DNA of 64,000 bases, from positions 201,867 to 265,866 of IMG/VR virus record IMGVR_UViG_3300029935_000001. One strand, given 5' to 3'. Below, one piece after another: positions 4,014 to 47,160 of this stretch. The position numbers and the translations under genes were made by a program. The notes under the pieces were generated by a model. That model made no database searches, had not been told where the DNA came from, and saw only the letters and a list, made by a program, of their open reading frames with translations. The stretch is from a virus. Taxonomy: Duplodnaviria > Heunggongvirae > Uroviricota > Caudoviricetes. Position 1 is the first letter of the stretch, and every line of letters starts with the position of its first letter.

Positions 4014-5256
4014 GAAAATAATGGATTTTATCAACGTTGCTGCATTAAACGAATCAGTCTCGCAAACCGTTACGCAAATGGTTGCCGAGCTGCTTTCGCA
4101 CGAAAACGTTCTAGCCGAGCTTAATCGCACCGCAGCCGATGTATTAAGGGCGCAAATCACCGAACAAGTAATGCAACGAGACTTCCAGCCTCTTGTTCGG
4201 GCTGCTATCGAAAAATTTGTTAGTGAAAATACGTTGCCAACTATCGGTAACATTATCGTCGAGCATCACGGGTCAGCTCCAGTTGACTCGTTTATTGCCC
4301 TAGCAGTTGAACACGAAGTAACTCGCATTGTTGCTGCGCTAGCCCAATCTCCAGAGTGGAATGCACAGATACGTCGTTTATTGTTAAACGACGTAAACCA
4401 CGTAATCTCTACTTATATAGACCGAATCGACGTCAACAGTGCAATAGCGCAAGAAATACAAAAATACCTTGCTGCTAAGCACAGTGAATCGTTACCAAAG
4501 TTTGGTATTGTTGATAATACTACTAAACCTGTGATGTCGTTGTCAGACAATGGCGTTGACACCCAAAAACTTGTTTGTTCTGAACTTACCTGCGATACTA
4601 TCGAAGTGACGGACCTGCAAGTTAATGGGCAGCTTAAATTTGATCCTTCTGCACTCAAAGACGAGCTTACGTCGCAAATTGCCTGCCAATTAGTTGAGCA
4701 AGTTACGTCAGTTGCGATTGCGCAAACTAAAGAGATTGTATCTAGCCACCGGGTACAAGCGGATCAAGTATTTACAGGACCGGTTCCGTTACTAGCTGAC
4801 GGTAAACTAAGCCGGCTGGTTACTCACTCGTCACTAGAGTCCGTTGGCGAGCTCGAGTCGTTGACTGTATTAGGCAAAACGGAACTAAACGATACTGTTG
4901 CGGTCTTAAAGAGTCGGGTCGGTATTAACACCGCAATGCCTGATTCTGCGCTTACTGTGTGGGACGAAGAGACAGCGTTGTCATTTGGCAAACACTCTTC
5001 AAACGCGTGTTATATCGGCAGCAATCGAGGCAATAAACTAGTATTAGGGATCAACCGCAAAGGCGTTGTGGAAATTACAGACACTAAAGTTACTGTTCCT
5101 GCGTTGCAAATTAATAAAAATATGGTAGGGTTTAGTAACACAACGCCAGTGCATGCCGGCACCCGCGGAGACTGGTTATGGAACACTGAAGTTACTGACG
5201 CGTCGCCGTATGCGTGGGTGTGTCTTGGCGGTTCTCGATGGAAGGCGCTAAAATGA
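4003..5256 (+). CDS. hypothetical protein, possibly fibre-like structural (Ser/Thr/Gly/Val-rich C-terminus)
   Basis: 417-aa ORF; start overlaps the previous gene; composition resembles phage fibre/receptor-binding proteins (weak). Confidence 0.45.
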   Translation: MFFRKIMDFINVAALNESVSQTVTQMVAELLSHENVLAELNRTAADVLRAQITEQVMQRDFQPLVRAAIEKFVSENTLPTIGNIIVEHHGSAPVDSFIALAVEHEVTRIVAALAQSPEWNAQIRRLLLNDVNHVISTYIDRIDVNSAIAQEIQKYLAAKHSESLPKFGIVDNTTKPVMSLSDNGVDTQKLVCSELTCDTIEVTDLQVNGQLKFDPSALKDELTSQIACQLVEQVTSVAIAQTKEIVSSHRVQADQVFTGPVPLLADGKLSRLVTHSSLESVGELESLTVLGKTELNDTVAVLKSRVGINTAMPDSALTVWDEETALSFGKHSSNACYIGSNRGNKLVLGINRKGVVEITDTKVTVPALQINKNMVGFSNTTPVHAGTRGDWLWNTEVTDASPYAWVCLGGSRWKALK

Positions 5257-5747
5257 GGATAGCTTGGATTGTAGGGCAAAGCGATCAGAATTACGATGTT
5301 GCTGCCCTCAAGGCAATCGGTCCTCTCTGGGGCACTTGGCAGTCGTGGCGGAAGTTTAAAACTGATAACGTAGTAGTAACAGACTTTAGCAAAGCAGTTG
5401 ACTTAACTGGCCGTGCCTTTCATAGTGTTTGTAACTTGTATCTCCCCGAAGACTTGTATCAAGCTGCTCAACGGCCAGCTGGCGTGCGCTTGTTTGCGCG
5501 TCCTGCAGGCGCTGGCGATTTAGCTGCATTAATGGGAGTAGTAGCAACTGTGGCCGACATTGTTCTTATTATTGGGTTGAGGCCGGGCTCACCTAACGAA
5601 GAACGTGAAGTGAAGTCAATTGTGCTAGCACACCCTAATATTCAATGGGTGAGCCTCGATGCCACTGAACCTTTTTTTGGTGGCAATGCTCCGCCAAACT
5701 GCCTAGTAGACACCACTGCTAATGTCTTGGCGATGCTTTCTGGTTGA
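5253..5747 (+). CDS. hypothetical protein
   Basis: The ATG overlaps the upstream stop (aaATGa); the gene's stop TGA lies inside the -35 TTGACT of the next promoter. Confidence 0.45.
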   Translation: MRIAWIVGQSDQNYDVAALKAIGPLWGTWQSWRKFKTDNVVVTDFSKAVDLTGRAFHSVCNLYLPEDLYQAAQRPAGVRLFARPAGAGDLAALMGVVATVADIVLIIGLRPGSPNEEREVKSIVLAHPNIQWVSLDATEPFFGGNAPPNCLVDTTANVLAMLSG

Positions 5748-5803
5748 CTAGCTGCTGCTACGGCGTTATAATAGCTACATACATTACTACTGCGGAGAAC
5801 ACA
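5744..5803 (+). promoter_or_regulatory. sigma70-type promoter (TTGACT-17-TATAAT) plus conserved leader variant
   Basis: -35 at 5744-5749, -10 at 5767-5772; leader agctacatacattactactgcggagaacacaATG. Confidence 0.6.
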
Positions 5804-6202
5804 ATGACTGCGCTCAACGAAACCGATCTTGTCACAGTTGTCGACCAAAGCTTGGGTTTCTTGCAGGCCCTTGCTGAGGTGTATGGCTCCGAGCGCGCAC
5901 AAGAAGCGTGGGCTAAGATAAGCGAGGCCCTCGGGCACGACGTTAGAGACGCAGTGTTCTTAGCTATGCTCGCCGGCGATAACGGTTCGGCTCGTGTGAC
6001 CTTCAAAATCACAAACCAAATCGTTAGCCATCGAGTGGCTGCTATTCGAGCGATTCGCGAGGCTGCATCGCTGGGCCTTAAAGAGGCCAAAGATCTTACG
6101 GATGCGGCAATGATGCGCGCCACTGTTGTGACGTGTAAAAATCGCCAATCAGCAAAAGGCCTGCGGCAAGCGTTGCGAGATCTTGGCATGGAGGCACAGT
6201 GA
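5804..6202 (+). CDS. protein with a ribosomal protein bL12 (L7/L12) C-terminal-domain-like region
   Basis: The C-terminal 70 aa read RVTFKITNQIVSHRVAAIRAIREAASLGLKEAKDL..., closely matching the bL12 CTD (EFDVIL...KIAVIKAVRxxTGLGLKEAKDL...); the N-terminal half is unrelated. Confidence 0.55.
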   Translation: MTALNETDLVTVVDQSLGFLQALAEVYGSERAQEAWAKISEALGHDVRDAVFLAMLAGDNGSARVTFKITNQIVSHRVAAIRAIREAASLGLKEAKDLTDAAMMRATVVTCKNRQSAKGLRQALRDLGMEAQ

Positions 6203-9395: not shown

Positions 9396-10388
9396 GTGAT
9401 ACCAACAAGAGCGCAATACTTTTTTACTGAGCGTGGATTTTTTAGAAAAAACGTCCTCAAAGAAGAAAAGTTCAGTCAACGCTATCCAGCTGTTTATGCA
9501 GAAATTAACAAAATTACTTCAACCTCGTTGCCGTGGCGAGAACGAGTGTATCTATATATACATGATGCACAAGAACCCCCACTCTGCCACTGCGGATGCG
9601 GAGAGCGGTGTGCTTTTTCGAACTGCCAAGACTCGAGTCGATTTACATATTTAAAGTTTTATTCAACTAAGTGCAAAGCTCGTGCTTATGGCGGTGTTGG
9701 AAATCCGTTTTTTGGTAAAAATCACTCAGATGAGACAAAAGAAGCAATCAGAGTTAAAAAGCAGGGCAAAACATATTCGCCCGAAGTAAACGCTAAAAAA
9801 GTGCGTCGCGGTGCTCAAAACGGAATGTACCAGCGTTGTAACTATGACGTTTGGCTCGAAAAATACGGCCCAGAAATTGCTTTACAAAAGCAGTTAGCAG
9901 CAAACGCTAAAAAAGTGCGTCGCGGTGCTCAAAACGGAATGTATGGTAAGTCGCCATCAAAAAAAGCTGGCAATTCTGTTAAGTGTTGGTACAAAGGTTA
10001 CTTTTGCCGCAGTTTATCCGAGCTAAGTTTTATAATAAACTACTGCGAGCGATTTAGGTTATTGTTTGAAACTGCCGAAACTACAAAATACAAAGTTGTT
10101 ATAGGTCCTAATAAAACGTACAGACCGGATTTTTTAGTAAACAACAAATTTATTGTTGAGATCAAACCAAAAGGGCTACAGAAGGCCCATGCTGACAAGT
10201 TTAGCATAGCCAAAGCAGAGTTTCTAAAGCAAGGGCTAACGTTTAAAGTCATTGACCCTATTAAAAAACTAAGTTATAATGACATTTTTGCGCTAATGCA
10301 AACGGGTGCCGTAGAAATAATGGCTGCTACGCATAGCAAAACTTATAACAACTTTATGAAAAGGTATCAAAAATGGGCAAAGCGGTAA
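9396..10388 (+). CDS. free-standing homing endonuclease (Zn-finger + NUMOD3 repeats + C-terminal PD-(D/E)xK-like nuclease)
   Basis: GTG start after AGGAGAG; CHCGCG zinc motif; NUMOD3-like GKNHSDETKEAIRVKKQGK; duplicated AKKVRRGAQNGMY module; C-terminal RPDF...VEIKPK motif; inserted between the pnk remnant and the intact pnk. Confidence 0.7.
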   Translation: MIPTRAQYFFTERGFFRKNVLKEEKFSQRYPAVYAEINKITSTSLPWRERVYLYIHDAQEPPLCHCGCGERCAFSNCQDSSRFTYLKFYSTKCKARAYGGVGNPFFGKNHSDETKEAIRVKKQGKTYSPEVNAKKVRRGAQNGMYQRCNYDVWLEKYGPEIALQKQLAANAKKVRRGAQNGMYGKSPSKKAGNSVKCWYKGYFCRSLSELSFIINYCERFRLLFETAETTKYKVVIGPNKTYRPDFLVNNKFIVEIKPKGLQKAHADKFSIAKAEFLKQGLTFKVIDPIKKLSYNDIFALMQTGAVEIMAATHSKTYNNFMKRYQKWAKR

Positions 10389-17128: not shown

Positions 17129-18115
17129 ATGCAGATTGGATTTTGTTGCAAGATGGTTATGCCGGCGGTGAAAAAAGGTTTTGAAAACATCGAATCCTGC
17201 AACTTCAAGACTACTACGGCTAAGTGGCTGCGCGAGCATCCGGGCTCGGCTCCTGAACGGCTTGATAGTATCTTGCGTCACAATTTGCAAGCAGTCAAGG
17301 ACCTAATCAGGCGGGTAGCTCAGCGGCCGCAAGTGGGACGCATGGTTCGCATTGGCTCGGATATTTTTCCACTCTTCACGCACCCTGACGCTCGGTGGTA
17401 TTGGTCAGACCCGCTAGTGCTCAAGTTTGCTGAGTCTCAACTAGCTATAGCGGGTGCTACTGCTCGCGCAAGCGGTGTTCGTTTGTCTATGCACCCGGGA
17501 CAGTTTGTTGTACTCGCGTCCGAATCAGAGAACGTCCGCGCTAACTCAGTCGAAGAGTTTGAGTACCACGCGTTAGTAGCTCGCATGATGGGCTACTGTG
17601 TCACCGATCACGATTTTAAGATTAACGTTCATTTATCGGGCAAAGGCGGCACAGCAGTGTTTCGTCAGACTTACGCTCAGCTCAGCCCCGAAGCACGTTC
17701 CTGCATTACCATTGAGAACGACGAGTTTCAAGCTGGGCTCGATCGAGTGCTTGAAATTGCTGATTTGTGCCCGATTGTGCTTGACCTACACCACCACTTT
17801 ATTCACTCCGGCGAGTACATCCAGCCCACCGATCCTCGCATTCAGCAAGTTATTGCGTCGTGGCGCGGCGTTCGACCAGTTATCCACTACTCGCAGTCTG
17901 GTGAGCAGTATCTTGCTCACTTCCCTAACACCTTGCCTACTCATGCCGAGCTACTCCAAGTTGCTCCGCGCAGCAAGCTTCGCGCACACTCGGACTTTTA
18001 CACCCACACTCAAACAAACGCCTGGGCGCTGCAACACTTAGAGTGGGCAGACATCCAGGCAGAATGTAAAGCCAAAAACTTAGGTGCCGACCAGCTTATT
18101 GCTGCTTTGTCTTAG
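17129..18115 (+). CDS. UV-damage endonuclease (UvdE/UVDE family, TIM barrel)
   Basis: MQIGFCCK start (compare M-R-L-G-Y-x-C); ITIENDE (compare LENDD); IVLDLHHH triple-His; 328 aa, typical length. Confidence 0.6.
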   Translation: MQIGFCCKMVMPAVKKGFENIESCNFKTTTAKWLREHPGSAPERLDSILRHNLQAVKDLIRRVAQRPQVGRMVRIGSDIFPLFTHPDARWYWSDPLVLKFAESQLAIAGATARASGVRLSMHPGQFVVLASESENVRANSVEEFEYHALVARMMGYCVTDHDFKINVHLSGKGGTAVFRQTYAQLSPEARSCITIENDEFQAGLDRVLEIADLCPIVLDLHHHFIHSGEYIQPTDPRIQQVIASWRGVRPVIHYSQSGEQYLAHFPNTLPTHAELLQVAPRSKLRAHSDFYTHTQTNAWALQHLEWADIQAECKAKNLGADQLIAALS

Positions 18116-31552: not shown

Positions 31553-32467
31553 ATGAATTTCAAATCTGTACCTGCCGTAATCTTCGACTTTCCGCCCCTT
31601 GCGGCAATTCTCGTAACTCTCTCTACACTGTTTCTTGCTGCGTGCGGCGACCGAGTTGAAGTGCCCCCAGCACATGTAGCCAAGATCATGACCAAGGATG
31701 GCTACAAGGCCGACACCATCGGCACGTCAAAATTTCGTCTTGAATGGTGCTGGGCATACTGCGACAAGCTGGTTCTGCTTGACGCGTCTGACCAAGCAGT
31801 GTCTGAAAAGATGGAACTTTTCATGCCGCAAGACAAGTTGAACATGGCGTTTGACTTGCGTCTAACGCTAGTGGTCAATCCCGACAAGTACGAAGAACTT
31901 TTTGCGCGGGTGCCGCCAGTTGAACAAAACGGCATCGAGTACATTGCCTGGGCAAAAGCATATCAAACGTATGCGCAGCAAATCGTTCGAGCCGAGGCAC
32001 GTGAATTCCTGAGCGGTTTTACGATTGCTGAAATCGCCAGCTCGCGCGAAGCGATTAACGCACAGCTTAGCACACGACTGACTGAGAGCATCAACAAGCG
32101 CACCCCGTTCCAAGTACGGTACGTTGGGCTAGCTGACATTCAGTACCCAGCAATTATTGTCGAAGCGCAAGAAAATGCAGCGCAGCGACGTGAGCAGATC
32201 CAACAAGAAGAAGCGCAGCTCGAAATTAGCAAAGTGGCACTTGAGCGACAACTGCAAGAGCAACAACTTCAGCGCCGAATTGACGTTGAACGCGCTCAAG
32301 CAGAAGCAGAAGTTGCGCGCATTCAATCGCAATCGCTTACTCCGCAATACATGAAGTATCGCGAACTTCAGATCCTAGAGAAGCTCGCAACAAGCGACAA
32401 CAAGGTGTTTGTGCCTAGCACGATGCTAGATTCGATCGCCGGTCAAGTGCAACTTGGTCGTCAGTAA
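31553..32467 (+). CDS. SPFH/band-7 (stomatin/prohibitin/HflKC-like) lipoprotein
   Basis: Lipobox LAAC after the signal peptide; central SPFH-like region; long C-terminal coiled-coil Q/E/A/R heptads (EQIQQEEAQLEISKVALERQLQEQQLQRR...). Confidence 0.5.
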   Translation: MNFKSVPAVIFDFPPLAAILVTLSTLFLAACGDRVEVPPAHVAKIMTKDGYKADTIGTSKFRLEWCWAYCDKLVLLDASDQAVSEKMELFMPQDKLNMAFDLRLTLVVNPDKYEELFARVPPVEQNGIEYIAWAKAYQTYAQQIVRAEAREFLSGFTIAEIASSREAINAQLSTRLTESINKRTPFQVRYVGLADIQYPAIIVEAQENAAQRREQIQQEEAQLEISKVALERQLQEQQLQRRIDVERAQAEAEVARIQSQSLTPQYMKYRELQILEKLATSDNKVFVPSTMLDSIAGQVQLGRQ

Positions 32468-33574: not shown

Positions 33575-33849
33575 CACTACTTTACGTGGCTGAATCAACC
33601 GCCTGGCCAGCCTCCTTGGTGCCACTAATGTACGAACCAGCGCAACGCAAGCTTGTCGCTGTTGGGAGTAACATGGTATATACAGAAGTGAGTTTTGCAC
33701 ATCCCCCTGAGCTCCTCGCTGTAGTAACCTGGGCAAAACAAAAAATGCTCGAAGAAAGCGAGATCAATCACCTCGTACAATCTAACCCTGCGATTCGTGA
33801 CGCAAAAACTGCCCTTGATGTATTATTGGCGCTGAACAAATCCAGTTGA
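33571..33849 (+). CDS. hypothetical protein
   Basis: GTGA overlap. Confidence 0.4.
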   Translation: MTLLYVAESTAWPASLVPLMYEPAQRKLVAVGSNMVYTEVSFAHPPELLAVVTWAKQKMLEESEINHLVQSNPAIRDAKTALDVLLALNKSS

Positions 33850-33896
33850 CATCTGGACATAGTGTGCTATAATAGCTTATACCAAGGAGAAGCAGC
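33846..33896 (+). promoter_or_regulatory. sigma70 promoter TTGACA-16-TATAAT, leader with SD AAGGAGAA
   Basis: -10 at 33868-33873. Confidence 0.55.
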
Positions 33897-34151
33897 ATGG
33901 ATAACTCTGTTGTTGAAGTAGCCGAAGATCTCGAAGAATTTGTCAAGACAATCGCAGCAACCGAACCAATGCAGAAGGTCTACTATAATCCTGGTGTGGT
34001 CAAGTATGAGTTTCAGTTTCGCTCGTCGCAAATAAATAACGGTAAGGTGGTTGTTGCGTCAAAGAAAGACATTGTGTTGGTGCTCGATAACGAGATTTAT
34101 CATAGCACTGATTTTTTCGACGCCCGCCGGAATCTTATAATGATGACTTGA
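33897..34151 (+). CDS. hypothetical protein
   Basis: Promoter-driven ORF. Confidence 0.45.
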   Translation: MDNSVVEVAEDLEEFVKTIAATEPMQKVYYNPGVVKYEFQFRSSQINNGKVVVASKKDIVLVLDNEIYHSTDFFDARRNLIMMT

Positions 34152-34154
34152 CAC

Positions 34155-34421
34155 ATGGGACCTTACGCGGAAGTGGATATAGATTTAGAATTTGCAAATT
34201 TGCGGAGTCACTCGCTTGCCCGCATTGCGGACAGGATTGAGTCGATTTGGGGGACCTCCGAAGCTGTGTCTTACCTCAACAGCTTAATAATCGACTACCG
34301 CGGCAATCGATCAGGGTTTCCGCGTTCGGTGATGTCAAGTTTGCTTAAACTATACAGTGCGCATCCAAGCCTTGGGCAACCTGATGGGAGCAACCCGTGG
34401 ATAACAACTCGGTACCAGTAG
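34155..34421 (+). CDS. hypothetical protein
   Basis: ORF in the gene train. Confidence 0.4.
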   Translation: MGPYAEVDIDLEFANLRSHSLARIADRIESIWGTSEAVSYLNSLIIDYRGNRSGFPRSVMSSLLKLYSAHPSLGQPDGSNPWITTRYQ

Positions 34422-34756
34422 GCGACTTGCATCTTGCAATGTGGTGCAGCGAAGGCCTCGAAGCTTTAGTTAATCTTAGCGAGCAATCGCGGGCTGACAC
34501 TTTTTCTGTTCTTTCTACCAGCAAGGCTGACCCTAAGTCTTTTAACAGCCACCAATTGGAAATGATGAAATTGCGCGCTCGTATGAATTCGCAACGCTGC
34601 TACGAAATCTATGCGTTTTGGTCTACAGTCGACACCAACACCGTTCGTGAAGTGTTTGATAGCGATCCGCAAATGCTGGTAGACTGGGTCCGCGAGCATG
34701 GCGAAAAAATTTACTCAGACCGTGTAGTTCACCATCGCAAAATCCTTATTACTTAA
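34397..34756 (+). CDS. hypothetical protein
   Basis: Overlapping ORF. Confidence 0.4.
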   Translation: MDNNSVPVGDLHLAMWCSEGLEALVNLSEQSRADTFSVLSTSKADPKSFNSHQLEMMKLRARMNSQRCYEIYAFWSTVDTNTVREVFDSDPQMLVDWVREHGEKIYSDRVVHHRKILIT

Positions 34757-34794
34757 CGTTATCTTGCCTATAACAACACCTGCCCTGAGGTAGC

Positions 34795-35124
34795 ATGAGC
34801 GACCAACCAGAACTATTCACACTCGACGACAGCAGCCAGGATTGGTGGCTTAACGGCGAACTACATCGCGATGATGGCCCTGCTGTAATCGATAGCGACG
34901 GAACCGAGTGGTGGTTCCGCAATGGGCGATTACATCGCGAAGACGGGCCTGCTGTAATTCGGACCGATGGTACCCAGGAGTGGTATCGCAACGGCCAACT
35001 ACATCGCGAAGATGGTCCTGCTGTTATCTATGCAAACGATGGCACCCAGGAGTGGTTTCTTGATGGCAACCGAGTAGACCCCATTGTTCACTTAATGCTG
35101 CGTTATGAGCAAGAAACAGGTTGA
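34795..35124 (+). CDS. MORN-variant repeat protein, paralog 1 (3.5 repeats)
   Basis: 23-aa repeats DGTxEWWxRNGxLHREDGPAVI; conserved tail VDPIVHLMLRYEQETG. Confidence 0.65.
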   Translation: MSDQPELFTLDDSSQDWWLNGELHRDDGPAVIDSDGTEWWFRNGRLHREDGPAVIRTDGTQEWYRNGQLHREDGPAVIYANDGTQEWFLDGNRVDPIVHLMLRYEQETG

Positions 35125-35178
35125 CCGTTGCGTTAATTCCGGTATAATATAAATATACAGATAATCCAGGAGTTTCGC
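35121..35178 (+). promoter_or_regulatory. promoter unit duplicated with the MORN genes
   Basis: cagGTTGACCgttgcgttaattccggTATAAT; the -35 overlaps the ...ETG-stop of the upstream gene. Confidence 0.6.
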
Positions 35179-35505
35179 ATGAACAACAAACCAACCCTAC
35201 AAAAACGCACAAACGGCACCCAGCAGTGGGTCCTCAATGGGCAACTACATCGCGAAGATGGGCCTGCTGTTATTCAAGCCGATGGTACCAGGATGTGGTA
35301 TCTTAATGGCCAGCGACATCGCGAAGATGGCCCTGCTGTGATCGATAGCGACGGAACCGAGTGGTGGTTCCGTAATGGCGAACTACATCGCGAAGATGGC
35401 CCTGCTGTTGTTCAAACAGACGGAACCAAAGAATGGTGGATCAACGGCGAAGAAGTAGACTTCGTGACTCACGCAGTGCTGCAACACAAAAATAAAAATC
35501 GTTGA
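35179..35505 (+). CDS. MORN-variant repeat protein, paralog 2
   Basis: Same repeat type; divergent tail VDFVTHAVLQHKNKNR. Confidence 0.65.
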   Translation: MNNKPTLQKRTNGTQQWVLNGQLHREDGPAVIQADGTRMWYLNGQRHREDGPAVIDSDGTEWWFRNGELHREDGPAVVQTDGTKEWWINGEEVDFVTHAVLQHKNKNR

Positions 35506-35561
35506 CCATCCGGGCTTGTTTTGGTATAATAACTATATCAACAACGCATTAGGTACGTGTT
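35502..35561 (+). promoter_or_regulatory. promoter TTGACC-17-TATAAT
   Basis: -10 at 35525-35530. Confidence 0.55.
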
Positions 35562-36029
35562 ATGAGCGGCAAACCAGAACTACACAAGCTCACCGACGGC
35601 ACCCAAAAGTGGTATCGCAACGGCGAACTACATCGCGAAGATGGGCCTGCTGTTATTCGGGCAGATGGCACTCGGTGGTGGTACCTCAATGGTCAAATTC
35701 ACAGAGAAGATGGTCCTGCGTGTATTTGCTCCAATGGCACCCAGGAGTGGTGGATCAACGGCCGACTACATCGAGAAGACGGGCCTGCATATATCGATGC
35801 AGACAGCACCCAGGAGTGGCACCTCACTGGCCTGCGACATCGCGAAGATGGGCCTGCATACATTGGTGCAGATGGCTCTCAGTGGTGGTACCGCAATGGC
35901 CGACTACATCGCAAAGACGGGCCTGCTGTTATCTATGCAAACGATGGCACCCAGGAGTGGTACCTCAATGGCAACCGAGTAGATCCTATCGCTCACTTAG
36001 TGCTGCGTTATGAGCAAGAAACGAGTTGA
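35562..36029 (+). CDS. MORN-variant repeat protein, paralog 3 (6 repeats)
   Basis: Six consecutive W-x-x-N-G-x-x-H-R-E/K-D-G-P-A repeats; tail VDPIAHLVLRYEQETS. Confidence 0.65.
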   Translation: MSGKPELHKLTDGTQKWYRNGELHREDGPAVIRADGTRWWYLNGQIHREDGPACICSNGTQEWWINGRLHREDGPAYIDADSTQEWHLTGLRHREDGPAYIGADGSQWWYRNGRLHRKDGPAVIYANDGTQEWYLNGNRVDPIAHLVLRYEQETS

Positions 36030-36086
36030 CCACCTGGGCTCGTTTCGGTGTAATAACTACATACAACAACACATTGGGTATGTGCA
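36027..36086 (+). promoter_or_regulatory. promoter TTGACC-17-TGTAAT
   Basis: The -35 overlaps the ...ETS-stop. Confidence 0.5.
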
Positions 36087-36482
36087 ATGAGCAGTAAGAC
36101 AGAAATGCGCGAATTCGCGGATGGCGGCCGGATGTGGCTACTTAATAGCCAACCACACCGCACGGACGGACCTGCTGTTATTCAAGCAGATGGAACCCAA
36201 AAGTGGTTCAGGAATGGCCGACTACATCGCGAAGACGGACCTGCTTTTATTCATGCAGATGGAACCCAAAAGTGGTATCGCAACGGCGATCTACATCGCG
36301 AAGATGGACCTGCTGTTACTTGGATTGATGGAACACAAGCCTGGTATCGAAATAGCCAACTACATCGCGCGGATGGACCTGCATATATTGATGCAAACGG
36401 CACCCAAATGTGGTACCTCAATGGCAAACGAGTAGATCCCATCACTCACTTAGTGCTGCGTTACGAGCAAGAAACAGGTTGA
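36087..36482 (+). CDS. MORN-variant repeat protein, paralog 4 (5 repeats)
   Basis: Same family; tail VDPITHLVLRYEQETG. Confidence 0.65.
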   Translation: MSSKTEMREFADGGRMWLLNSQPHRTDGPAVIQADGTQKWFRNGRLHREDGPAFIHADGTQKWYRNGDLHREDGPAVTWIDGTQAWYRNSQLHRADGPAYIDANGTQMWYLNGKRVDPITHLVLRYEQETG

Positions 36483-36524
36483 CCGTTGCGTTTAATTCTG
36501 GTATAATAGCATTGGGTATATGCC
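36479..36524 (+). promoter_or_regulatory. promoter TTGACC-17-TATAAT
   Basis: Nearly identical to the unit at 36848. Confidence 0.55.
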
Positions 36525-36851
36525 ATGAGCAACCGACTAAAACTACGTAAACTCGCTAATGGCACCCAGATGTGGGCCCTTGGCGGCCGACTACATCGCG
36601 AAGACGGGCCTGCTGTTATTCACGCCGACGGCGACCAGATGTGGTATCGCAATGGCCAACTACATCGAGAAGATGGGCCTGCAGTTGTCTACTCTGATGG
36701 ACAACAAGAGTGGTGGATCAACGGCCAACTACATCGCGAAGATGGACCTGCTGTTGTTTGGCCCAATGGCACCCGAATGTGGTGGCTTAATGGCAAACAT
36801 GTAGACCCCATCACTCACCTAATGCTGCGTTATGAGCAAGAAACAGGTTGA
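36525..36851 (+). CDS. MORN-variant repeat protein, paralog 5 (4 repeats)
   Basis: Same family; tail VDPITHLMLRYEQETG. Confidence 0.65.
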   Translation: MSNRLKLRKLANGTQMWALGGRLHREDGPAVIHADGDQMWYRNGQLHREDGPAVVYSDGQQEWWINGQLHREDGPAVVWPNGTRMWWLNGKHVDPITHLMLRYEQETG

Positions 36852-36909
36852 CCGTTGCGTTTAATTCTGGTATAATAACTACATACGGTAATTGAACGGA
36901 CAAAAAGAA
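36848..36909 (+). promoter_or_regulatory. promoter TTGACC-17-TATAAT plus leader variant (actacatacggtaattgAACGGAcaaaaagaaATG)
   Basis: -10 at 36871-36876. Confidence 0.6.
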
Positions 36910-37605
36910 ATGGCTCGCCAACAATACGCAAAACCTGCACCAGTAATGATTCCGGCTGAACGAGTGTGGGCGGCTATCGCTCTTGCTTGGCGTGTAGTTG
37001 GTAATCAATATCTCGCCGAACCTTTGGTGGTCTACGGCAACCAAGGCGAAGTGCTGTCGACCACACCGCCCAACAAAGTCCTGGTTCGCCAAATTCTAAC
37101 CAACGAATCAGAGTATCGAATCACTGCTGCCGACCAGGAAAAAGGCGCCGAGTTCCGGCAGCAAATCAATGCCCTGAGCTTTGCAGTGCTTATGGGCCGT
37201 CGGCTCAATAGCTTTCTCACCAACTTGGTTGAGCTTGCGCAAAAAGATGAAGTTGACCTCAACGACCGGTTCGCCGTTGGTGTGCTCTCATGTGCGCCCA
37301 AGACTGCTATCGCCGAGCATACGCGAGCAATGCAAGATCAGCGACTGGCGTTTGCCAATACCAAGCACCTTGGCAAAGTTGGCGAGCGCGTCAACATACA
37401 AGTTGAAGTGATTAAATCCGTCTACTCGCAGCAGTGGAACACTTATTACATCACTGCTATTTCCGAAACTGACCAAGCGGTCTGGTTTGCGTATCGCAAG
37501 CCAATTGAGCTTGGCACCAAGATCTCGATTGCTGGCACAGTCAAGCGGCTGGCTGACAACGGGCAAACCCAACTCAGTCGCGTGACTGTTAAATCCACCC
37601 TGTAA
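36910..37605 (+). CDS. hypothetical protein (231 aa)
   Basis: ATG at the canonical leader position; the track's 36892 start lies inside the leader. Confidence 0.5.
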   Translation: MARQQYAKPAPVMIPAERVWAAIALAWRVVGNQYLAEPLVVYGNQGEVLSTTPPNKVLVRQILTNESEYRITAADQEKGAEFRQQINALSFAVLMGRRLNSFLTNLVELAQKDEVDLNDRFAVGVLSCAPKTAIAEHTRAMQDQRLAFANTKHLGKVGERVNIQVEVIKSVYSQQWNTYYITAISETDQAVWFAYRKPIELGTKISIAGTVKRLADNGQTQLSRVTVKSTL

Positions 37606-38218: not shown

Positions 38219-38410
38219 ATGACATCGCATGAAATTATCGTTGAGCAGTTTAACCAGTACCTTGCCGAACACGCCAAGTTTACGGAAAAAGGCGTTAAGG
38301 CCAGTGCCGCCCGCGCCCGCAAAGCGCTGCAAGAAATTGCTAAAGCAGTGAAAGAGCGTCGCAAAGAAATCACAGCCGAAAAAGAAGCAATGTCGGCTGT
38401 TGCTGAGTAA
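38219..38410 (+). CDS. small basic helical protein (63 aa)
   Basis: SD AAGGAGAA; Lys/Ala/Glu-rich; followed by a hairpin. Confidence 0.5.
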   Translation: MTSHEIIVEQFNQYLAEHAKFTEKGVKASAARARKALQEIAKAVKERRKEITAEKEAMSAVAE

Positions 38411-38444: not shown

Positions 38445-38792
38445 AATTTGACTATGTCAGTTATTAACCCACACCAGCAGACTGCTGGCCACACAGTTGT
38501 AAACATAAGTTCCGCGGCAGCGATCCCGTGGTCAGATGCTAATTTGCCCCACAAAATTAGCAACACTATAAATACATCTTTGCGTATTGATTCAGATTCT
38601 ATTGTAATCGGCGACCAAACACTCAGTGTTATTTTGCAAAACTTGCAAGAGCAAATAGCTCTTTTGGTTCCAAGTCTTGAGCTGCACAAAGAGTATGCCG
38701 AGCTTCGAGAGCTCTACGATCAGTACCAAACTAAGCGCAACGAAATCAAGGAGAAGCGCCGAATGTGGGAAACACTAAAAAGCAATGGCTAA
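38439..38792 (+). CDS. hypothetical protein
   Basis: ORF; C-terminal helical region. Confidence 0.4.
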
Positions 38793-39003
38793 AGAAGAAG
38801 CAATCCGTTTAGACGGGGTAGTAACCGAAGTCCTGCCTAACGCAATGTTCAAGGTAGAAGTTGGTGACACAAAGCACCAAGCAGTAGCACATATTAGTGG
38901 ACGAATGCGCCAAAACTCGATCAAAGTGATTGCCGGGGATCGCGTAGAGATTGAGTTTTCGCCCTACGATTTGACCAAGGGCCGAGTAGTGCGTCGCCTG
39001 TAA
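38785..39003 (+). CDS. infA: translation initiation factor IF-1
   Basis: 72 aa; the S1-like OB signature [64 protein letters not shown] aligns along its full length to bacterial IF-1. Confidence 0.85.
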
Positions 39004-39036: not shown

Positions 39037-41811
39037 ATGACGCAAATACGCTGGATAACAAGTGCCGGGTCGTTAGGGACCATTCCGGAAGGACGATTTT
39101 ACCGACTACCACTCCAGGCGGTTGCTCCCGGTGAAGATGTGAAATTTAAACTGATCTCAGGCAGGCTTCCTGCAGGGATTCAAGTAAAAATAAACGGAAC
39201 ACTTGAGGGCATACCAGAAGCAGTGGCAATAACACAAGGTGTTCCACTTCCGGTTGACCGCAATGTAACTTCAAAATTCACTGTTCGAGCATACGTCACT
39301 GACGCCCATGGCACAGTGATTGGCATTGCTGACCGGACGTTCGAAGTTACCGTCACGGGTCAAGACGCGCCGCGGTTTGTTACCCCAAGCGGTAGTCTCG
39401 GCGGTTTTTTAGATGCCACCGAGGTCCGCATTCCTATTCAAGTAGCTGACGACGACAACGAAGAGTTAACAATCACTGTCGCGTCTGGCCAGCTCCCACC
39501 GGGCCTTACTGTTGTTGGTAATGTTATTCAAGGCATTATTGAGCCCGAACTTACTCTCGAAAACACTGCTATTCCTGGATTTGACAGATCATCATACGAC
39601 CAGTATCCGTTTGACTTTTCTGCTATCGCAGTGGACCGTAATTATCAATTTACCTTAGAAGTTACCGACGGAAAAGAAACCGATCGCCGCCAATACTCAA
39701 TATTTGTAATGGCGCGCAACAACATCCCACTGGATCCGAGCGAACGGTTTGCGTTATTATCAGGGTTGGTATCAAATTCCGACTCCGATTGGACAGTTGA
39801 GCGGCCTCCGTTTATTACAAACGCATTAAACGAGTTAACAGTTCGCCACGACAACTACTTTTTTTTAAAATTTAATACTGTCGATTTCGACGGCGATCAA
39901 GTGGGAGTTAGGGTCGTCGGCGGGGTGGTGCCGCCATTTCTTTATAATTTCAAAGACACAAACACAACGTTCGATAATGGGACTACTACATTTAAAGAGC
40001 GTTTAGAGGCGTATAAGACTGTTACCTTTGATAATAAGACTACAGTGTTTGATAGCGGCCGTACTCAAATGTTTGTTTCTGGGCATATAACTTTCGACAC
40101 AACCACTCCGAATTTAACATCTAACGCAACAACATTTGATTGCAGGTTGAGCAGCGGCGAAACCTCCGCTACGAGGTTTTATAGTTATTTGCCAGTTAAT
40201 GTTGCTACTTCTTTTGTTAACAATTCGTTGTTCGGCCAACTACCAGACCAGGGTGCCACTGAAGAAGAGTATGTGTTTGTAGTCGAAGCCTACAAACTCA
40301 ACAACCCCGCAATTCGAAGCCGCCCATACCAGTTTAAAATAACCGTAGTCGGCGACATCGAAAAAGAGGTTACCTGGTTAACTGCTACAGTAGACTCAGT
40401 TTGGACTGGCCAGCCATCAACGTCGTTTGTTCAAGCAGCCAGTAAGCTGGGTTATCCGCTACAGTATCGGTTAGCGAAGAACACAGCTAGCAAGTTGCCG
40501 CAAGGCTTACAACTGTTGCCAACAGGTGAAATTGCCGGCCGCCCAAGTATTAACCAGCTAATGTTCGACGGTGAAAAAACCACATTTGATTCGGAACTGG
40601 CCACCCGTCGCGAAGTTAAACCAACTACGTTTGACCGAACTTTTGAATTTGTTGTTGAAGCTTTTTACGTCGATCCTGCCGACGCAACTAACACAATTGT
40701 TTCGACATTTAAGCAATTTACCATCCAGGTGCGTGATTCCGCTAAGCGGCCGTGGGAAGGGTTGTATATTCAAGCAATGCCTCCACTGGACGACCGCGCA
40801 ATAGTGCGGGAGTTTTTATCTAGTACCATTTTTGATCCTGAGATGTTGTTTCGGCCAAATGACCCAAACTTTGGCTTAGCTCGAAACATAGTTTATCATC
40901 ACGCGTTTGGTGTCACTGCTGCTGATTTAGAACAATATGTAGATGCCGTGCAACAATCGCATTATTCCAAAGAAGTCACAATCGGTGAACTGAAGAGCGC
41001 ACAAGCCCTGGACGACAACGGTCAAGTTGAATATGAAGTAATTTATGCGTCTATTGTCGACGATTTAGTCACCGCTAGCGGAGAGTCAATTTCTACTCGT
41101 GTTCAGTTACCGCCATTAAAAAATCGTCCGGTTGATGCTAGCGGAGTTCCAGTCTCTGGTGTTTATCCAAACAGTTTGCAAAATATGCAGAAGCGTATAT
41201 TTACTGAAGTTGGGAGAGTAATACCGTCACTCCCAGCTTGGATGCGTTCTAAACAACCCGACGGCCGGGTGTTAGGCTTTACACCTGCGTGGGTTATAGC
41301 TTACACCAAACCCGGAAAATCACGCGAACTGCTGTATCGAATACAAGAAAATTTTATAAATGTTTTTAATAAAATTGACTTTTCGGTTGATCGATTTATT
41401 GTTGACAAAGAACTAACGTATATCTGGGGTGCAACGCGAACCCCTTCGTATGCAGCTTCGCTTGCGGGTGCAGGAGTTACTGTGTTGCCTGGCGCGTGGG
41501 ATACTCCAACATACACTACGTTTGACATTGATGTCAATCGCACATTTGATCCAGTTAACACATACGACCGTGGCACGGTCACAACAGAAACGCTCGCAGA
41601 CCCGCCGTTTTGGATCAGCGGCGCTGTGTCAACTATTATTTCAAATTCGTGTGGCCAGTGGGACTGCGGCGAAGTGTTGGGTCTAAGCGGCGGAACTGGC
41701 ACTACTTTTGATCGAGCCCGGTTGCGGTTTGTTGCTCCTGTGATTTCCTACGGGCAAGGCGACATTCATAATAAATATGTTATGTTCACAAAACGAGGTA
41801 TTTTTAAATGA
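39037..41811 (+). CDS. large structural protein (924 aa) with N-terminal Ig-like (He_PIG-type) repeats and multiple T-T-F-D motifs
   Basis: Repeats ISGRLPAGIQVKINGTLEGIP / ASGQLPPGLTVVGNVIQGIIEP / ASKLPQGLQLLPTGEIAGRP; at least 8 copies of (T)TFD; likely tail-fibre, baseplate or decoration protein. Confidence 0.55.
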   Translation: MTQIRWITSAGSLGTIPEGRFYRLPLQAVAPGEDVKFKLISGRLPAGIQVKINGTLEGIPEAVAITQGVPLPVDRNVTSKFTVRAYVTDAHGTVIGIADRTFEVTVTGQDAPRFVTPSGSLGGFLDATEVRIPIQVADDDNEELTITVASGQLPPGLTVVGNVIQGIIEPELTLENTAIPGFDRSSYDQYPFDFSAIAVDRNYQFTLEVTDGKETDRRQYSIFVMARNNIPLDPSERFALLSGLVSNSDSDWTVERPPFITNALNELTVRHDNYFFLKFNTVDFDGDQVGVRVVGGVVPPFLYNFKDTNTTFDNGTTTFKERLEAYKTVTFDNKTTVFDSGRTQMFVSGHITFDTTTPNLTSNATTFDCRLSSGETSATRFYSYLPVNVATSFVNNSLFGQLPDQGATEEEYVFVVEAYKLNNPAIRSRPYQFKITVVGDIEKEVTWLTATVDSVWTGQPSTSFVQAASKLGYPLQYRLAKNTASKLPQGLQLLPTGEIAGRPSINQLMFDGEKTTFDSELATRREVKPTTFDRTFEFVVEAFYVDPADATNTIVSTFKQFTIQVRDSAKRPWEGLYIQAMPPLDDRAIVREFLSSTIFDPEMLFRPNDPNFGLARNIVYHHAFGVTAADLEQYVDAVQQSHYSKEVTIGELKSAQALDDNGQVEYEVIYASIVDDLVTASGESISTRVQLPPLKNRPVDASGVPVSGVYPNSLQNMQKRIFTEVGRVIPSLPAWMRSKQPDGRVLGFTPAWVIAYTKPGKSRELLYRIQENFINVFNKIDFSVDRFIVDKELTYIWGATRTPSYAASLAGAGVTVLPGAWDTPTYTTFDIDVNRTFDPVNTYDRGTVTTETLADPPFWISGAVSTIISNSCGQWDCGEVLGLSGGTGTTFDRARLRFVAPVISYGQGDIHNKYVMFTKRGIFK

Positions 41812-46236: not shown

Positions 46237-47160
46237 ATGAGTAAGCTCTGGACGGAACATTACCGCCCTAAAACCGTTGATGGTTATGTGTTTCGCGACG
46301 CCAGCCAAAAAGAACAAGTAGCAGCCTGGCTACGAGAGGGAATGATTCCCCACTTACTGTTTTCGGGTGCGCCGGGTACTGGCAAAACCACCTTAGCCAA
46401 GGTGTTGCTCAATGAGCTCGGCGTTGACGATTACGATGTGCTTGAGATCAACGCATCGCGCGAAAACTCGGTCGACACCATTCGTGACAAGATCACAAAC
46501 TTTGTTCAAACCATGCCGTTTGGCAAGTTCAAAGTGGTGTTACTCGACGAAGCTGACTACATTTCGCCCAATGGCCAGGCCGCCTTGCGTGGGGTAATGG
46601 AAATGTATGCTGCGACTGCCAGATTCATCCTGACTTGTAACTACCCGCACAAAGTTTTGCCGGCACTAAAGTCTCGGTGTCAAGGATTTCACATCGAACA
46701 GCTGGACGAAGTTGAATTCACTGCGCGAGTTGCTACGGTACTGGTCGAAGAAGGAGTTGAGTTTGACCTCGATACTCTGGACTTGTATGTTAAGGCTACT
46801 CGTCCAGACTTGCGCAAGTGCTTAAACCTACTCCAGATGAACTCAGGTACGGGTAAGTTGCTTGCGCCGGCTGCTGAAGAGTTGTCAGACACAAGTGGAT
46901 ACTTGCTACAAGCGGTAGAGCTATTTAAAGCAGGGCGCAGCCGAGATGCCCGGCAAGTGCTATGCAGCAACACGCGCGTCGACGAAGTAGAAAAAGTGTT
47001 CCGCTGGATGTATGATAATCTCAGTTTGTGGGGGCAGTCGCCAGAACAGCAAGACCGGGCGATTGTGATCATTCGTCAAGGCTTAGTAAATCATTCGTTT
47101 GTTGGCGACCCAGAAATCAACCTCAGCGCTACTATCACAGAACTAATCAATATAGAGTAA
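46237..47160 (+). CDS. clamp-loader ATPase (RFC small-subunit / T4 gp44 type)
   Basis: HYRPKTVDGYV; Walker A LLFSGAPGTGKTT; DEAD box VVLLDEADYIS; sensor-1 TCN; SRC motif LKSRCQGF. Confidence 0.85.
   Translation: MSKLWTEHYRPKTVDGYVFRDASQKEQVAAWLREGMIPHLLFSGAPGTGKTTLAKVLLNELGVDDYDVLEINASRENSVDTIRDKITNFVQTMPFGKFKVVLLDEADYISPNGQAALRGVMEMYAATARFILTCNYPHKVLPALKSRCQGFHIEQLDEVEFTARVATVLVEEGVEFDLDTLDLYVKATRPDLRKCLNLLQMNSGTGKLLAPAAEELSDTSGYLLQAVELFKAGRSRDARQVLCSNTRVDEVEKVFRWMYDNLSLWGQSPEQQDRAIVIIRQGLVNHSFVGDPEINLSATITELINIE

Follow-up and report, generated by a model that had tools for sequence, protein, structure and literature searches.

A tandem array of five paralogous genes for predicted MORN-like repeat proteins, with stop codons set within the -35 boxes of promoters, in a phage genome

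The closest described parallel to the gene array analysed here is the family of MORN-repeat paralogs of the Marseilleviruses and other giant viruses. MORN proteins, which are of unknown function, outnumber every other paralogous family in Marseillevirus genomes (PMC8208085, PMC7192143). In this study, we analysed a stretch of 64,000 nucleotides from a Caudoviricetes virus (IMG/VR record IMGVR_UViG_3300029935_000001, positions 201,867 to 265,866; the whole stretch is hereafter called the window), in which five consecutive open reading frames (ORFs) on the + strand, at 34795-36851, encode short proteins built from 23-residue repeats. The finding is an expansion of repeat-protein paralogs in a large virus, a kind that is already known, and the array itself is ordinary. 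Its local twist is that the stop codon of each gene lies within the -35 box of a promoter, and that genes 2-5 have one promoter each.

The repeat proteins of giant viruses (Marseilleviridae, Mimiviridae/Klosneuvirinae, and Pandoravirus) belong to the same fold class as that predicted for the window proteins and often have a similar motif. Their matches in Foldseek had E values of 1e-10 to 1e-4 and included 'MORN repeat' proteins of Harvfovirus, Hokovirus, Pandoravirus, and Mimivirus, as well as Mimivirus R871 and proteins of Powai lake megavirus. However, these viruses have eukaryotic hosts and their proteins are often larger and multi-domain, whereas the window proteins belong to a virus with a bacterial host and are minimal (108-155 amino acids, aa). 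The sigma-70 promoter that each gene has for itself, fused to the preceding stop codon, is also a feature of the window and not of the giant-virus families.

The five ORFs encode proteins of 109, 108, 155, 131, and 108 aa. Every protein opens with a short hydrophilic N-terminus, MSxKxEL.K.., and continues with complete 23-residue repeats of the form xDGTxxWYxNGxLHREDGPAVIx, which are followed in all five by a half repeat, DGTxxWxLNG, and then by a C-terminal tail. The genes are as follows.

34795..35124, + strand: array gene 1, 109 aa; three full repeats and a half repeat; tail VDPIVHLMLRYEQETG; Shine-Dalgarno sequence GAGG upstream
35179..35505, + strand: array gene 2, 108 aa; three full repeats and a half repeat; tail VDFVTHAVLQHKNKNR
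35562..36029, + strand: array gene 3, 155 aa; five full repeats and a half repeat; tail VDPIAHLVLRYEQETS; period of 69 nt in 5.4 copies
36087..36482, + strand: array gene 4, 131 aa; four full repeats and a half repeat; tail VDPITHLVLRYEQETG
36525..36851, + strand: array gene 5, 108 aa; three full repeats and a half repeat; tail VDPITHLMLRYEQETG; protein used for modelling

The DGPA anchors were exactly 23 residues apart in all five proteins, and a period of 69 nt was detected in every array gene with Tandem Repeats Finder (2.5-5.4 copies, 69-78% matches). The original prediction, made from the sequence alone, had placed five neighbouring genes with 23-residue repeats here, and the ORFs lie exactly where it put them. 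In a six-frame translation of the 64-kb window, 18 copies of the repeat motif were found in the 2.1-kb array and none elsewhere. The number of repeats is indeed variable as proposed, but the values of 3.5, 4, 6, 5, and 4 copies have to be replaced by 3, 3, 5, 4, and 3 complete repeats in genes 1-5, each with the additional half repeat. Gene 1, which had been set apart with 3.5 copies, does not differ from genes 2 and 5 in its repeat number; the earlier numbering was inconsistent for this gene. The proline of DGPA is encoded by CCT in all 18 repeat units, without a synonymous change though other codons vary freely; this constancy may reflect codon preference or a constraint at the DNA level.

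A common tail had been claimed for four genes. It reads VDPIxHLxLRYEQETG in genes 1, 4, and 5, and gene 3 has a variant that ends in ...ETS. Gene 2 differs, its tail VDFVTHAVLQHKNKNR being divergent and encoded by AAAAATAAAAAT, with A-rich codons just before the next -35 box. The lengths of the coding sequences differ by exact multiples of 69 nt, apart from one 3-nt indel.

Each array gene ends in a TGA stop codon that is contained in TTGACC, and this hexamer is the -35 box of a sigma-70 promoter close to the consensus. The promoters in and next to the array, with the gene that follows it, are listed below.

33846..33873, + strand: TTGACA-16-TATAAT, TG-extended; promoter probably for the small genes at 33897-34756
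35121..35148, + strand: TTGACC-16-TATAAT, spacer type A; promoter for gene 2, with the gene 1 stop within the -35 box
35502..35530, + strand: TTGACC-17-TATAAT, TG-extended, spacer type B; promoter for gene 3, with the gene 2 stop within the -35 box
36026..36054, + strand: TTGACC-17-TGTAAT, spacer type B'; promoter for gene 4, with the gene 3 stop within the -35 box
36479..36507, + strand: TTGACC-17-TATAAT, TG-extended, spacer type A; promoter for gene 5, with the gene 4 stop within the -35 box
36848..36876, + strand: TTGACC-17-TATAAT, spacer type A; promoter for the gene at 36910-37605, with the gene 5 stop within the -35 box
36910-37605, + strand: gene after the array, 231 aa, phrog_2319, unrelated to the array genes

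The promoter is perfect at four of the five array junctions, whereas the -10 box after gene 3 is TGTAAT; four array promoters read TATAATA. The spacer of type A, GTTGCGTT(T)AATTCYGG, follows genes 1, 4, and 5, and a 44-nt exact repeat is common to the gene 4/5 junction and the copy at 36834. Genes 2 and 3 are followed by a second spacer type, AYCYGGGCTYGTTTYGG, and the near-identical promoter said to stand after each gene was accordingly found after three of them. The leaders 3' of the -10 box are mosaic, with AACTAYATAC... occurring behind both spacer types. Since tail, promoter, and leader are shared in a mosaic manner and the gene lengths change in steps of 69 nt, we agree with the proposal that the array expanded as whole gene-plus-promoter units were duplicated and internal repeats were gained or lost.

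The 48-nt tail is better conserved than the gene bodies, third codon positions included: between genes 4 and 5, third positions matched at 14 of 16 codons in the tail versus 44 of 69 in the body. Gene conversion would account for this conservation, and so would a double constraint, in which the last codons would coincide with a promoter upstream element; the upstream-element role is one that we infer. Directly upstream of gene 1, no consensus promoter was found, the nearest upstream being that at 33846. Gene 1 is probably transcribed by read-through from this promoter and would be co-transcribed. No convincing terminators were found within the array, and no Rfam match was obtained between 33.5 and 39.2 kb.

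The same promoter type is not confined to the array. TTGAC-N16-19-TATAAT occurs at 23 perfect sites in the window, all 23 of which are on the + strand (0.13 expected), and at five or more further sites the TGA in the -35 box is the stop codon of a preceding ORF that is 100 or more codons long. Junctions with a stop codon in the -35 box are seen, for example, at 5744, 13282, 21063, 21421, and 33846 (+ strand), where GG and an A-rich run often precede. The density of promoters is five in the 2.1 kb of the array versus about one per 2.4 kb elsewhere. The promoter type is thus window-wide and not array-specific, and what is specific to the array is the promoter density and the co-duplicated spacers. 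In the jumbo Pseudomonas phage PA5oct, a distant relative, 32 promoters with TTGAC and TATAATA motifs at transcription start sites were reported, and the early transcripts come almost entirely from one strand (doi 10.1101/679506). The window promoters, TTGAC-N16-19-TATAAT, are of the same type; by analogy, those of the array are probably recognised by the host polymerase and active early.

We examined whether the copies are coding, how they have been selected, and how old they are. The codon-position entropy of the 18 repeat units in the annotated frame was 0.60, 0.54, and 0.96 at the first, second, and third positions, respectively, the third being the most variable. The pairwise ratio of nonsynonymous to synonymous substitution rates (dN/dS) between paralogs was 0.24-0.44 at a dS of 0.59-0.98. 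From the third-position entropy and the dN/dS, the overlapping ORFs in other frames are ruled out as genes and are by-products of the repeats, as had been supposed. The dN/dS was 0.15 at the scaffold positions and 0.57 at the six variable positions (1, 6, 8, 9, 12, and 23), and no site class with a dN/dS above 1 was found. At the DNA level, the repeat units are 55-88% identical, and no exact repeat in 34701-36950 is longer than 44 nt. None of the five frames is interrupted, and their starts, stops, and promoters are consistent. The paralogs are old, selectively maintained copies under purifying selection; with this divergence, the description of the cluster as rapidly evolving does not hold.

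The same values bear on whether the copy number of genes and repeats could be an assembly artefact, with repeats having been collapsed or expanded. The repetitive nature of the DNA, with its 69-nt periodicity and repeated gene units, speaks for such an artefact. However, the repeat units are too dissimilar, the gene bodies differ at a dS of 0.6-1.0, the longest exact repeat is below ordinary read length, and five intact frames with consistent signals are retained. An assembly artefact is therefore hardly credible.

The AlphaFold model of the gene 5 protein, obtained with an alignment of 125 sequences, had a predicted local distance difference test score (pLDDT) of 96.9 and a predicted template modelling score (pTM) of 0.85, and consisted of regular beta-hairpins and a helix at 95-107. 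In this predicted model, each repeat is a beta-hairpin and the hairpins are stacked as an elongated antiparallel single-layer sheet, which is the kind of MORN stack that had been anticipated. The single-sequence model of gene 3 (pLDDT 44) was unused except for noting the same strand/helix pattern. With Foldseek, the best matches among solved folds were MORN1, MORN4, radial spoke protein 1 (RSP1), and junctophilin, with E values of 3.5e-3 to 0.05 and probabilities of up to 1.0 for MORN1, MORN4, and the radial spoke protein. The template modelling (TM) score of the gene 5 model against the eukaryotic MORN structures (MORN4-Myo3a, 6JLE; MORN1, 6T4R/6T68; RSP1/RSP10; junctophilin-2, 7RXE) was at most 0.46. 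Against predicted viral structures, 42 matches were obtained at E<=1e-3, including many proteins of uncultured Caudovirales, at least eight proteins of Agrobacterium phage Atu_ph07, gp09 of Celeribacter phage P12053L, and giant-virus proteins, several of which are named "MORN repeat".

At the sequence level, the picture was different from that of the predicted fold. None of the five proteins matched Pfam MORN (PF02493) at E<=1, and MORN_2 (PF07661) was matched in three of the five below threshold (E 0.015-0.31; 11.8-15.9 bits versus a gathering cut-off of 29.6). MORN_2 proteins and the YwqK-like proteins of COG2849 resemble the window proteins in being bacterial beta-hairpin repeats with an NG turn. 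The only Pfam family at threshold was DUF6745 (PF20530), for which gene 5 scored 32.1 bits versus the cut-off of 27 and the other four 17.5-24.5 bits; it is also the commonest precomputed label on homologs. However, the alignments were limited to profile positions 63-80/87 of 206, repeatedly used (18 positions in the case of gene 5), indicating that a short motif and not the whole domain is held in common. In the PDB, phmmer with one protein found nothing, and a profile of the five paralogs found nothing at E <0.05, the best hit (E 0.069) being an unrelated curlin-repeat protein; no sequence homology to the eukaryotic MORN structures was detected in these searches. The eukaryotic MORN motif is YxGxWxxGxxxGxG, in contrast to WYxNGxLHRxDGPA in the window. 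Searches of NCBIfam and PHROGs returned noise or families of unknown function only. The designation as a MORN variant is therefore retained for the hairpin fold and its structural matches but not for the Pfam MORN and MORN_2 models; in other words, a MORN-like fold is supported by the predicted model, and the sequence searches did not place the proteins in the curated MORN families.

The family extends far beyond the window. Out of 1.84 billion, a profile of the five paralogs picked up 35,510 cluster representatives with E<=1e-3, and 21,055 when the limit was set at E<=1e-10; a word-index search gave more than 7,300 hits, mostly proteins of 130-190 aa. Arrays are usual in the family: of the related loci with a length of 6 kb or more, 39 in number, 22 contained adjacent family genes, 15 had runs of three or more, and seven had runs of five or more. 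Examples include 11 genes in a row (locus L016) and 15 genes within 13 kb (L025), and further ones were found in L031, L015, L022, and L001. In these arrays, neighbouring genes are on the same strand, the N- and C-termini are array-specific, and the repeat number ranges from two to more than 14. The array of L022 has a tail homologous to that of the window, YEPSAHELIVYKM, and at least eight family paralogs are present in Atu_ph07.

Compared with the window, the other arrays (L016, L025, L031, L022, L001, and those of Duganella and Atu_ph07) have the same architecture of termini and repeat number. They are not close to it, the best identity being 67% over the repeats. Furthermore, most of their genes touch or overlap one another, an arrangement suggestive of operons, and no consensus sigma-70 promoter lies between them, whereas the window array has a promoter for each gene. 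From this difference, the promoter-per-gene layout appears to be this phage's own transcription grammar.

Family members were also found in bacterial genomes and, rarely, on plasmids. In Duganella qianjiadongensis (NZ_WWCM01000007.1, 3771-6040; locus L101), five tandem family genes have a common C-terminal tail, ...EEEFNQWLMKKNLNEKLQ...KRGKI, and come immediately after a helix-turn-helix gene and a mobilisation gene of the MobC/NikA type; this array is probably on a mobilisable element. On big phage contigs, the family genes lie within runs of small accessory genes. Several individual members are unusual in size or composition. One ORF contains 21 repeats (L033, 1225-3255), and proteins of up to 1,927 aa have many repeat blocks (P0121-P0138); a Pfam scan of six very long members detected fused LRV/HEAT repeats in one and nothing in the rest. 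On the groundwater phage-like contig L001, 13 family ORFs lie within 11.6 kb and adjoin a pair of genes for an AAA (MoxR-like) protein and a DUF2201 protein, and the product of 5212-5832 has an N-terminal hydrophobic, membrane-anchor-like segment that is absent from the window proteins. Nothing relevant was found in the literature on DUF6745, the motif HREDGPA, or such arrays in phages, and the family is not mentioned in a comparative review of jumbo phages.

The array proteins have molecular masses of 12.5-18 kDa, isoelectric points of 4.3-6.6, and a grand average of hydropathy (GRAVY) of about -1, and no hydrophobic segment or signal peptide was found in any of the five. With no hydrophobic stretch and a low GRAVY, they would be soluble, cytoplasmic proteins. 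Our preferred reading, taken as a whole package, is that of an expanded paralog family of soluble cytoplasmic MORN-fold binders with strong early expression and a part in host takeover or counter-defence, and we see an even chance that it is right. Each protein would form a short single-layer sheet of 23-residue hairpin repeats closed by a C-terminal helix, with W, NG, LHR, and DGPA of the scaffold fixed, and with about six positions per repeat and the repeat number varying between paralogs. Because genes 2-5 and the gene after the array would each be read from their own near-consensus host sigma-70 promoter, host RNA polymerase would transcribe them strongly, probably from the start of infection, and in the absence of terminators between the genes transcription would add up along the array. 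The proteins probably act as adaptors or inhibitors that bind different host or phage partners; the binding targets are speculative. MORN modules such as MORN4 bind proteins, and its structure (PDB 6JLE) is among the fold matches. This binding role, the accessory-gene context, and the recurrence of the family in phages and mobile elements are the grounds for proposing protein binding.

Several points weigh against this reading. The early timing is inferred from promoter type only, and the promoter class of PA5oct is not explicitly tied to one temporal class (doi 10.1101/679506). No recurrent neighbour gene was found on the large contigs surveyed. For no family member was a function found by experiment or annotation, the annotated relatives being named 'hypothetical protein'. 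Furthermore, the variable positions gave no sign of positive selection, their dN/dS being 0.57 with synonymous sites near saturation, and a diversifying arms race is therefore not demonstrated. A wider interpretation, in which the WYxNGxLHRxDGPA family is a major unrecognised class of diversifiable binders that mobile elements express on entry against host defence effectors or toxins, is conceivable but doubtful. Specificity would then depend on how many repeats a protein has and on about six surface positions in each of them.

Other roles were weighed against that of early-expressed binders. YwqK is the MORN_2-repeat antitoxin/immunity protein of the Bacillus YwqJ toxin, and a special case of the preferred reading would be that the paralogs neutralise toxic effectors of the host, such as those of abortive infection or polymorphic toxins. 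Three close homologs are named 'antitoxin component YwqK of YwqJK toxin-antitoxin module' by JGI, the weak MORN_2 matches point in the same direction, tandem paralog arrays resemble arrays of orphan immunity genes, and the genes occur in phage accessory regions and beside mobilisation genes. However, the JGI label is an automatic COG transfer, the MORN_2 scores are far under the gathering cut-off, no antitoxin model of NCBIfam was matched, and no toxin gene or domain was found beside the array, either in the window or in those related loci that were inspected, which leads us to regard YwqK-type immunity as unlikely. Neither MORN nor YwqK is mentioned in the part of a polymorphic-toxin paper that was available. 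Nor do we favour the view that the copies are redundant or decaying duplicates from a selfish repeat expansion without distinct roles. Repeat families expand easily by unequal recombination, and comparable paralog families of Marseilleviruses are very unevenly expressed (PMC7192143), but in the array all copies are intact, old, and yet retained, the scaffold is under strong constraint at its dN/dS of 0.15, and genes 2-5 each keep a near-consensus promoter; such an explanation is quite unlikely.

The original prediction had suggested surface or membrane binding, in which the repeats would tether cargo to a membrane or the surface of the virion. The historical meaning of the acronym MORN is membrane occupation and recognition nexus, and the hydrophobic segment in the relative from L001 would suit this role. 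Lipid binding by MORN repeats has reportedly been questioned in the paper on the MORN1 structure. The five window proteins, small, acidic to neutral, and hydrophilic, lack both signal peptides and hydrophobic segments, and the structures matched best are MORN modules that bind proteins. In addition, the genes lie behind host-type sigma-70 promoters among small accessory genes and not in a structural module, and promoters of the type found at PA5oct start sites argue against late virion genes. We consequently abandon this suggestion as very unlikely in favour of soluble binders.

The window is phage-like and consists mainly of small genes on the + strand. The following genes were also identified.

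533-1741, + strand: ClpX with a zinc finger, about 50% identical to the ClpX proteins of Atu_ph07 and Sinorhizobium phage Phosso
13985-15082, + strand: Rnl-type RNA ligase with a PHA02142 OB domain
17129-18115, + strand: UvdE UV endonuclease
31553-32467, + strand: SPFH/Band-7 protein
46237-47160, + strand: clamp-loader AAA+ ATPase, 55% identical to the clamp loader of PA5oct

In addition, the ORF at 9396-10388 (+ strand) encodes a protein of 330 aa, probably a homing endonuclease, in which a NUMOD3 motif is combined with a TnsA-like endonuclease N-terminal domain. Downstream of the array, the 63-aa product of 38219-38410 (+ strand) matched the Hc1 histone H1-like family (PF07432; E 3.4e-12, 46.5 bits versus a cut-off of 23.5) and is possibly a phage-encoded nucleoid or DNA-compacting protein. 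The ORF at 38785-39003 (+ strand) encodes a 72-aa homolog of the translation initiation factor IF-1 (Pfam eIF-1a/IF-1, E 1.3e-21, 76.4 bits versus a cut-off of 30.2). The 924-aa product of 39037-41811 (+ strand) had no Pfam match, and its residues of about 412-796 are about 26% identical to regions of Atu_ph07 and Phosso proteins annotated as S8/extracellular serine protease.

No relative was found at the DNA level by megablast against 50,697 phage records, and IMG/VR contained neither the exact promoter-junction pattern nor the flanking gene at 36910-37602. For gene 5, only family members with at most 67% identity (over repeats) were found in IMG/VR and the JGI metagenomes; gene 4 was not found in GTDB genomes, and an exact-protein look-up gave no record. 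The phage is a novel one of the jumbo type, and no close relative was found in the collections searched.

The array points to a very large family, with its 35,510 cluster representatives, that has neither a Pfam family of its own nor a solved structure, and the minimal members of 108 aa would be attractive scaffolds for structural work. The junction grammar, in which a stop codon lies in the -35 box and the last codons fall where an upstream element is expected, can help to annotate transcription units in this phage group. If the proteins are binders of host factors in the entry phase, the arrays would be a convenient place to seek host-takeover and anti-defence activities. If the family is indeed a class of diversifiable binders, it would be to the viruses of bacteria what the ankyrin and MORN host-range families are to large eukaryotic viruses.

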